This document shows positions 15,041 to 15,785 of a stretch of 50,981 nucleotides of DNA, in pieces. Position numbers and translations under genes: made by a program. Position 1 is the first letter of the stretch, and each line of letters starts with the position of its first letter. This stretch comes from Escherichia phage PhiR5_1, in sequence record PV340545. One strand, written 5' to 3'. Under the pieces are notes generated by a model. That model ran no database searches. It had not been told where the DNA came from and saw only the letters and a program-made list of their open reading frames with translations.

Positions 15041-15278
15041 AGTCACTAGTTAGAAATACTGCCAGCATTCTACGATAACGGAAGTGCTGGCATTTTTTGG
15101 GGTAATGTGCGAGTCCATTTCATAAAATACGGGTGCTGTAAACTGGACGAAATAATCTAAAAGATACCATTACCAGTAGCATTTAAATCGCTATGTGCCG
15201 ATACGGATAAAATTATATTGATTGTTCACATACCTTATTGGATATTACTGAGGGGTATTTATATAAGGTGTAACGATA

Positions 15279-15785
15279 ATGTGGAACTTTGACAGTGCCG
15301 ACTTAAGTGCAATAGCAGCAGGCATTTCTGCGTTTGGCACATTAGCCGCAGCGGGGTCGGCGCTTGCAAGTTGGTACACGTCAAAACAAGCGCTGCAGCT
15401 ACAAAATAGAGTTTACCTTTATGAGTCTTTAAAGGCTTGCGCTGAGAGAGCCAATACATCAGCTAAAGATAAGCGCGGATCTGAATGGAGCGTTAATGAT
15501 GCAGCGGATATCATCAGGTGCCTGGTACGGGCGATGGAGATCATCAAGCAGGATAGCCAGCAGAAAGAAGGTAATCAGGCATTAATGTTGAAACAGTACT
15601 TTGTTAATCTGCTAATAATGGAACTGTACGAGGAAGTTCATAACGGTGATGCGGCTGTTTCTGTTTTTAAAAGTACGGAACCTACACAAGTACTTGATAA
15701 CTTATGGAACAAATGGCAGGAGGCTATAGCTTTTTTTGATATTTGGAATTACCCAGTTGTGACTGAGGAAGACTTGGCAGACTAA
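15279..15785 (+). CDS. Hypothetical protein with N-terminal hydrophobic segment
   Basis: 168 aa; AT-rich upstream region with promoter-like TTGATT...TATTAC. Confidence 0.5.
   Translation: MWNFDSADLSAIAAGISAFGTLAAAGSALASWYTSKQALQLQNRVYLYESLKACAERANTSAKDKRGSEWSVNDAADIIRCLVRAMEIIKQDSQQKEGNQALMLKQYFVNLLIMELYEEVHNGDAAVSVFKSTEPTQVLDNLWNKWQEAIAFFDIWNYPVVTEEDLAD

Follow-up and report, generated by a model that had tools for sequence, protein, structure and literature searches.

The gene and its protein family

The 50,981-nucleotide (nt) sequence of Escherichia phage PhiR5_1 (PV340545; this whole stretch is called the window below) is a complete lambda-like prophage, in which an integrase at the left end is followed by a cI-type repressor, O, P, ren, the nin genes, Q, the lysis genes and the head and tail genes. 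Between an immI-like module and ninB, an initial annotation had placed a 168-amino-acid (aa) open reading frame (ORF) and described it as a stand-alone, membrane-anchored moron with its own promoter, possibly acting in superinfection exclusion. The ORF was confirmed at 15279–15785 on the plus strand, with the Shine–Dalgarno (SD) sequence AAGGTG (15265–15270, plus strand) read from the sequence 8 nt 5′ of its ATG, and so was its position. The module upstream comprises an Arc-family, mnt-like gene (13726–14073, minus strand), a small Arc-like gene (~14143–14301, plus strand) and, as the immediate neighbor of the ORF, the gene of an antirepressor (Ant) with Bro-N and P22AR_C domains (14291–15040, plus strand); downstream lies the NinB/YbcN gene (15980–16435, plus strand). 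The guanine–cytosine (GC) content of the ORF is 44.2%, compared to 51.3% for ninB and 51.2% for the window, and that of the 238-base pair (bp) spacer in front of it (15041–15278) is 36.1%, in agreement with the AT-rich region noted there initially.

Within this spacer, an intrinsic terminator of ant was located at 15060–15098 (plus strand; inverted repeat I1), with a 10-bp stem over 15060–15092, a U6 tract at 15093–15098 and a fold of −19.3 kcal/mol (z −2.1). It is conserved in PhiR26_1, Ec1409 and Ec55989 and was missed by the terminator scan because of its long loop. Since this terminator stands between ant and the ORF, transcription of the ORF depends on a promoter of its own or on N-mediated antitermination, and to this extent the label 'stand-alone' was apt.

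The ORF protein matched the profile of PHROG 1779 with an E value of 6.5e-99, residues 1–168 aligning to profile positions 2–169 of 169, and the same family, to which neither a function nor a Pfam domain nor a structure has been assigned, also takes in all 32 of the 32 aligned relatives. An exhaustive hidden Markov model search of 1.84 billion representative proteins returned 34 matches that form one family, the complete ones nearly all of 150–180 aa. A word-indexed search of 5.8 billion proteins yielded 14 clusters with 47–95% identity to the ORF protein, and a second word-indexed search with a wider profile found no further families. Homologs keep a constant length down to ~22% identity, and deep comparisons within the family gave nonsynonymous divergence (dN) of 0.25–0.85 with saturated synonymous divergence (dS). 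As judged by these comparisons, the ORF is a real gene under long-term purifying selection. By its profile match, it belongs to an existing family, and the protein itself had already been deposited: an identical sequence, annotated as a 'hypothetical protein' of E. coli, occurs on 116 contigs at NCBI, and the family records include RefSeq WP_032176364 and WP_000990013 and UniProt A0A0P7PYM6. The named relatives are all from Enterobacteriaceae (Escherichia, Cronobacter, Dryocola, Enterobacter, Scandinavium and Phytobacter). A profile search of genome contigs with a narrow alignment identified three species (Scandinavium, Enterobacter cloacae and Phytobacter), and tblastn against 50,697 phage records retrieved PhiR26_1 only. 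Literature searches with the accessions, the PHROG identifier, phage PhiR26 and nin-region hotspots as queries found nothing on the PHROG 1779 gene.

Predicted topology, fold and acidic tail

The sole hydrophobic window of the ORF protein above 1.0 on the Kyte–Doolittle scale lies at residues ~4–33, with a best 19-aa window of 1.59. A weakly hydrophobic helix rich in Ala, Gly and Ser is found here (codons ~9–33; 15303–15377, plus strand) and is predicted to serve as an N-out/C-in membrane anchor. Across PHROG 1779, the N-terminal helix has ~20 residues, is uncharged and consists of 47–68% Ala, Gly and Ser in 30 of the 32 members, with 68% in the window allele; in one relative (P0041), extra hydrophobic segments are fused in front of it. 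The flanks are acidic on the N-side (often ending in D-W) and carry Lys or Arg on the C-side in nearly all members, the N-flank having a net charge of −2 without any Lys or Arg and the C-flank one of +2 or more across the family. With this acidic N-flank and basic C-flank, the PHROG 1779 protein is predicted by the positive-inside rule to be a bitopic inner-membrane protein with N-out/C-in topology.

The Pf3 coat protein and ZipA, both bitopic and oriented N-out/C-in, enter the membrane by means of a short acidic N-tail. The ORF protein is like them in having such a tail, a single helix, basic residues after it and a predicted cytoplasmic location for its bulk, a likeness that is a topological analogy only, with no relationship in sequence or fold. 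SAR domains, as in phage endolysins and T4 RI, are weakly hydrophobic N-terminal helices rich in Gly, Ala and Ser with N-in/C-out topology, from which a periplasmic domain is exported. In composition (68% Ala/Gly/Ser) and hydrophobicity (1.59), the helix of the ORF protein resembles a SAR domain, whereas the reverse orientation is predicted from the charges of its flanks, and the protein continues into a C-terminal domain with two cysteines and an acidic tail.

Structure prediction, proposed as a check in the initial annotation, was carried out in two AlphaFold2 models. The second, built from 32 sequences with a predicted local distance difference test score (pLDDT) of 80, contains a continuous helix over residues 6–62 followed by a compact helical bundle. 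The sequence profile led to no relative in the PDB. The conserved residues of PHROG 1779 are mainly hydrophobic or structural (L51, A55, N59, W70, I89, F108, L112 and W146), and no catalytic-looking constellation was seen among the conserved positions of the alignment. Action by partner binding is therefore most likely, and we infer that the product may be a membrane-tethered, non-enzymatic binding module. The C terminus ends in a conserved acidic tail, TEEDLAD (codons 162–168; 15762–15782, plus strand), which is invariant as T-[DE]-EDLAD in the close clade and of the D-x-D-L-x-D type in ~22 of the 32 members.

The cargo slot and a co-inherited upstream element

The 810-bp segment carrying the ORF was found in 181 of 5426 complete E. 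coli genomes, always on the chromosome and in DLP12-type prophages, and also in phage PhiR26_1. The block formed by the leader, ylcH and ybcN (ninB) is present in 2953 of the 5426 genomes, and in 163 the homology extends into the ORF. Homology of this block to the window begins at ~15785–15822, that is, at the ORF stop codon, and because of this break the ORF can be read as one of several alternative cargoes. Other occupants of the slot include a SIR2-family gene, the orphan PHROGs 12521 and 13877, emrE–ybcK and, in one prophage locus (L024; L numbers denote the loci compared), an immI module that precedes another gene, of 210 aa (phrog_5712); in PhiR26_1, PD-lambda-1 adjoins the pair formed by Rha and the ORF. 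As judged from this distribution, the ORF is an accessory gene that is swapped in and out of a slot between O/P/ren and the conserved leader–ninB block. The suggestion of an accessory gene was thus borne out by its frequency (~163–181 versus 2953 of 5426 genomes), by the other cargoes in the slot, by the lower GC content and by the conserved anchor-like helix.

The block that the window has in common with DLP12-like prophages and PhiR26_1 runs from inside the P22AR_C domain (14654 or 14730) via the ORF to Q (17515). In E. coli, dS was 0.01–0.02 for the ORF and 0.08–0.28 for ninB, which suggests a recent common origin of the cassette. The P/ren-to-ninB slot of DLP12-type prophages was seen as a cargo hotspot (L021 2520–4451, L001 3077–4579, L023 3959–4968 and L024 4179–4984). 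In Rha-type prophages, an 80–145-bp piece of the ninB leader is duplicated with ~90% identity in the cargo region, and the copies flank the Rha and ORF pair (L001 4888–4976 versus window 15862–15950; also L041, L045 and L052–L073); judging by this arrangement, the duplicated piece resembles a 'boundary sequence' at which cargo is exchanged by recombination. In E. coli FELIX_MS533 (L004 5249–6003), an IS1 lies 5 bp upstream of the ATG and the whole early region is replaced; the ORF is intact and ybcN has an internal stop.

The promoter initially proposed for the ORF was composed of the hexamers TTGATT (15218–15223) and TATTAC (15243–15248), which are 19 nt apart, the latter without the −7 T. 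This pair is badly spaced, but a conserved element does exist at the site across relatives. From comparative conservation, the sigma-70-like candidate is TTGATT, a spacer of 17 nt and GATATT (15241–15246), spanning 15218–15246 on the plus strand. The ~75 bp before the ATG could be aligned in six lineages (the window, L005, L006, L008, L074 and L078) that have 50–71% aa identity in the coding region and different upstream genes, and all six have ATTG (−35 region) and TGGATATTA (−10 region) without change and equally spaced. Mean pairwise identity was 0.69 in the core of the element, compared to 0.68 at codon position 1 and 0.45 at codon position 3. In a second subclade (L009, L010 and L082), TATAAT, or TGATATAAT in L010, occurs at the same distance of 26–37 nt from the ATG. 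Position-restricted promoter scores exceeded those of 124 control genes of the same loci, with a Mann–Whitney p of 0.0025 that ignores kinship.

The −10 hexamer is bracketed by an operator-like inverted repeat, ATACC-N19-GGTAT (15230–15258, plus strand), which takes the form ATACCCT-N15/16-AGGGTAT in relatives. A search for the pattern gave two matches in the window versus 0.23 expected, the second being chance-like. The arms are conserved in sequence with zero compensatory changes, so the repeat was rejected as an RNA hairpin and points instead to a protein-binding DNA site. LexA, CII, DnaA-box and FNR-like readings of the palindromes upstream and downstream were considered by eye and did not fit the consensus spacing, and comparison of the repeat with the cI/cro operator region and the immI control region of PhiR5_1 revealed no resemblance. 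On these alignments, a cis-element of ~45 bp, with the form TTGnnn-17-GATATT and the inverted repeat at its sides, is co-inherited with the PHROG 1779 gene and conserved like a first codon position; we consider it a well-founded inference that this element is a promoter with an operator.

The genomic contexts of diverged homologs were then compared. In the close clade (L005, L006, L008–L010, L074, L075, L077, L078 and L082–L084), the gene lies 5′ of the gene for NinB or its analog DUF1367, mostly immediately, and hardly ever does another gene stand between it and the ninB/DUF1367 leader; on its upstream side are DUF551, ASCH-like or other genes, with no adjacent antirepressor. Distant homologs occupy three places, namely the stretch behind the replication genes in Rac-like pR operons, the distal pL operon (N-cIII-kil-RecT...int) or a position after an Ead/Ea22 gene among small early-type genes, and, in four contexts, the position directly 3′ of a DNA polymerase III theta-like gene or its remnant. 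Adjacency to theta (HolE/Hot-like) is a trait of the distant 'MSWH...' clade from Cronobacter, Dryocola and metagenomes (L011 5756–6519, L017 1221–1939, L025 5804–6519 and L014 5889–6522); no theta-like gene turned up when the window and the close-clade loci were searched for one.

A proposed moron-like cassette and its alternatives

The best overall explanation, which we put forward tentatively, is a moron-like accessory cassette composed of ~70 bp of conserved regulatory DNA and one PHROG 1779 gene. A moron is an obvious addition of deviant GC content, with its own promoter and terminator, that is expressed from a repressed prophage (PMC3594210). Like the morons of lambdoid phages such as HK97 gene 15 (the Juhala/Hendrix concept; Cumby et al. 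2012, PMC3594210), the PHROG 1779 gene is present or absent between conserved neighbors, the GC content of the ORF deviates from its surroundings, the product is predicted to be a small membrane protein and a promoter-like element travels with the gene. Unlike morons, the ORF has no terminator of its own in the window, this feature being present only in L074/L075, and by place and orientation it belongs to the early right operon, not to the late one; its product has no sequence relationship to gp15. In the L074/L075 lineage (71% identity), and in no other, a canonical terminator, AAAAGGCCUC-UCCG-GAGGCCUUUUU (AAAAGGYCUCUYCGGAGGCCUUUUU), lies directly 3′ of the stop codon (L074 1828–1855). With a terminator inserted after the gene, this lineage therefore has a full promoter–gene–terminator unit.

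In such a cassette, the ORF would be transcribed from its own sigma-70 promoter, probably under the control of a protein that binds the inverted repeat, and would also be transcribed by N-antiterminated read-through from pR in lytic growth. The product would insert into the inner membrane through its weakly hydrophobic, small-residue helix, leaving an acidic N-tail of ~8 residues outside and an acidic helical bundle of ~135 residues in the cytoplasm. There, at the membrane's cytoplasmic face, it might bind a partner, with the acidic C-terminal peptide (TD/EEDLAD) as a docking or auto-regulatory element. A role in phage–phage or phage–host conflict, with exclusion, abortive infection, counter-defense and all other variants taken together, is by a cautious estimate the most likely single class of function. 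It is favored by the company in the cargo slot, the predicted place in the membrane and a control element that the gene has to itself, and neighbors in several of the homologous contexts are defense or competition genes (retron, AAA_15/RloB and pyocin S). A more specific proposal, in which PHROG 1779 would be a single-protein conflict system of temperate enterobacterial phages that is operator-controlled, is a helical-bundle protein tethered N-out/C-in, captures a cytoplasmic or membrane partner through the acidic C-terminal peptide so as to exclude or abort competing phages or neutralize a host defense, and is unrelated to SieA, SieB, Imm, gp15 and catalogued defense proteins, is speculative and, taken as a whole, unlikely.

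A number of observations weigh against the cassette and its proposed role. Neither the ORF protein nor the 32 relatives had a significant match in Pfam, NCBIfam or PADLOC, which leaves the proposal without likeness to a characterized protein, and a sequence-profile search of the PDB with the PHROG 1779 protein gave no match. In PADLOC-DB 2.0, no family matched the ORF protein, and the 32 relatives gave scattered single matches with E > 1e-3. The remote-homology comparisons that the initial annotation had suggested, here covering Pfam, NCBIfam, PADLOC, the PDB, SieA and SieB, thus revealed no relationship. The N-terminal hydrophobic helix described initially is a conserved feature of the family but marginal in the window allele, which lies at the lower limit of hydrophobicity for a membrane helix and is the weakest in the family. 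Taken in the window alone, the TTGATT-17-GATATT candidate is at chance level, since 34% of spacer shuffles are as good as its position weight matrix score of 9.7 bits, and a consensus promoter scan of the window did not report it. The promoter-like element is missing in about one-third of the family members, and the conserved element may have a function other than that of a promoter.

Further points of this kind come from the genomic contexts. They would suit an ordinary delayed-early gene with a part in lytic development, whose transcription would come solely from early-operon read-through, starting at pR or, for distant relatives, at pL. The product of such a gene might be tied to replication as a membrane tether or modulator, or might take part in host take-over, and the upstream element would act in translation, processing or some other regulation instead of as a promoter. 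In all ~20 homologous contexts, the gene points in the same direction as an early operon (pR or pL), often after a short gap (−4 to ~100 bp), being almost always the last before the ninB/DUF1367 leader in the close clade and lying in the pL operon in the distant clade. In two of the four contexts directly after a theta-like gene or remnant (L011 and L017), the preceding stop codon and the start codon overlap, amounting to translational coupling. In the window, a scan found no intrinsic terminator between 15786 and ninB, the hairpins there being without a clear U-tract, and with the ORF co-directional with pR the label 'stand-alone' fails on this side. Near-neutral evolution in cryptic prophages, detailed below, fits as well. 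Because all contexts are co-directional with the early operon and two are translationally coupled, read-through expression in early lytic growth appears at least as well founded as expression in the lysogen. However, the element has sigma-70 spacing, hexamers (with −11A and −7T kept) and distance to the ATG, and recurs as TATAAT in the second subclade; with the ant terminator just upstream, expression of the ORF would rely wholly on antitermination; one lineage (L074/L075) has a terminator directly after the gene; and theta adjacency, seen in a single clade, may reflect inherited synteny. In our assessment, an ordinary early-lytic accessory role, though short of an even chance, is almost as probable as a conflict function.

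A narrower form of the initial suggestion would be superinfection exclusion by a protein that is made in the lysogen and keeps the DNA of incoming phages from passing the inner membrane, as do P22 SieA, HK97 gp15 and T4 Imm. The predicted membrane anchor, the conserved promoter-like element and a cargo slot common with defense genes are consistent with it. P22 SieA has 162–164 aa, three predicted transmembrane (TM) segments (three or four) and the motif FxRYPxEAxxFNK (PMC10883804), and the ORF protein is of similar size, is predicted to lie in the inner membrane and is likewise encoded near an immI-type mnt-arc-ant module. In contrast to SieA, it has one helix and the motif is not in its sequence, and on the P22 map sieA lies on the other side of immI and on the opposite strand. 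Profile comparison by hhalign led to the rejection of homology to SieA (probability 0.1%, E 0.56) and to SieB of lambda and P22 (probability 0.9%), and PADLOC gave no match. Only ~8 residues are predicted to lie in the periplasm, where the DNA-delivery conduit is assembled, the bulk being cytoplasmic. Exclusion of this type is therefore improbable.

The ORF could also be a decaying passenger, the family being real and the window allele no longer functional. Among 45 close E. coli copies, the window included, 14 nonsynonymous and 4 synonymous polymorphisms were counted, which is near neutral (pN/pS, the polymorphism ratio, ~1), and truncated or frameshifted copies occur elsewhere; near-neutral polymorphism and broken copies, on sequence grounds, speak against cryptic prophages keeping the gene under strong selection. 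Two rare changes are present in the window allele and in L034, K37Q (codon 37, 15387–15389; K in 43 of 45 copies) and D127V (codon 127, 15657–15659; D in 41 of 45), D127 being part of a conserved A/P-D-S/A motif, and no other member of the family has a weaker membrane helix than the window allele. Set against this, the reading frame is intact in all 45 copies, the window included, the exact protein is present on 116 contigs, and both the SD sequence and the upstream element are intact, so loss of function in this allele is quite improbable. Least probable is that the ORF is a functional partner of the antirepressor within the immI-like module, since the linkage seen in E. coli (copies always inherited with the 3′ end of the Ant/Rha gene and its terminator, a shared homology block with DLP12-like prophages and PhiR26_1 that starts inside the P22AR_C domain, and Rha and ORF pairs between two copies of the 80–145-bp boundary element) vanishes outside this species, where other genes such as DUF551 or ASCH-like genes stand upstream of diverged homologs, while the immI module of L024 precedes a different gene and the conserved element starts only ~75 bp before the ATG.

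As it stands, the ORF is a real but ordinary prophage accessory gene, one of many uncharacterized prophage ORFs, for which the comparison yields a candidate promoter/operator, a predicted topology and a seven-residue tail. If a role in exclusion, abortive infection or counter-defense were true, PHROG 1779 would be a new small family of prophage conflict proteins without relatives among known systems, and the P/ren-to-ninB slot of DLP12-type prophages would be a cargo hotspot worth mining, with SIR2, PD-lambda-1 and orphan PHROGs among its contents.

The right boundary of the cassette is formed by the structured leader of the ninB block (15786–15979, plus strand), at which the homology of the 2953 E. 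coli genomes starts. Across nine diverged lambdoid loci, this leader is more strongly conserved than the ORF, and it contains an invariant TTGATT-17-CATAAT at 15798–15826 and three hairpins (~15832–15856, ~15862–15888 and 15916–15939). The hairpins covary strongly, with compensatory changes in 13 of 31 pairs, a number reached in 0 of 500 shuffles and compared to ≤4 in slid controls, and G-U pairs favor the plus strand. A ylcH-like 33-aa ORF (15882–15983) overlaps the leader and is translationally coupled to ninB. No match to the leader was found in Rfam; from its structure and position, it could be a tR2-like terminator cluster, a nin-operon leader or a small RNA. Present in more than half of the complete E. 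coli genomes, it may be the more interesting by-product of this analysis.

At the arc/ant junction, a sub-threshold match to sar RNA (Rfam RF00262) was found on the minus strand (14306–14370; 34 bits versus a gathering threshold of 43, E 2.8e-4), which fits a P22-type immI module located in the nin region rather than the late region. Between ren and the mnt-like gene (13249–13725, ~480 bp), all ORFs are without a PHROG match, namely one of 132 aa (13328–13726, minus strand) and one of 107 aa with a hydrophobic middle (13188–13511, plus strand). The equivalent place in L024, downstream of its minus-strand Arc gene, is occupied by a gene of 159 aa (phrog_3983).

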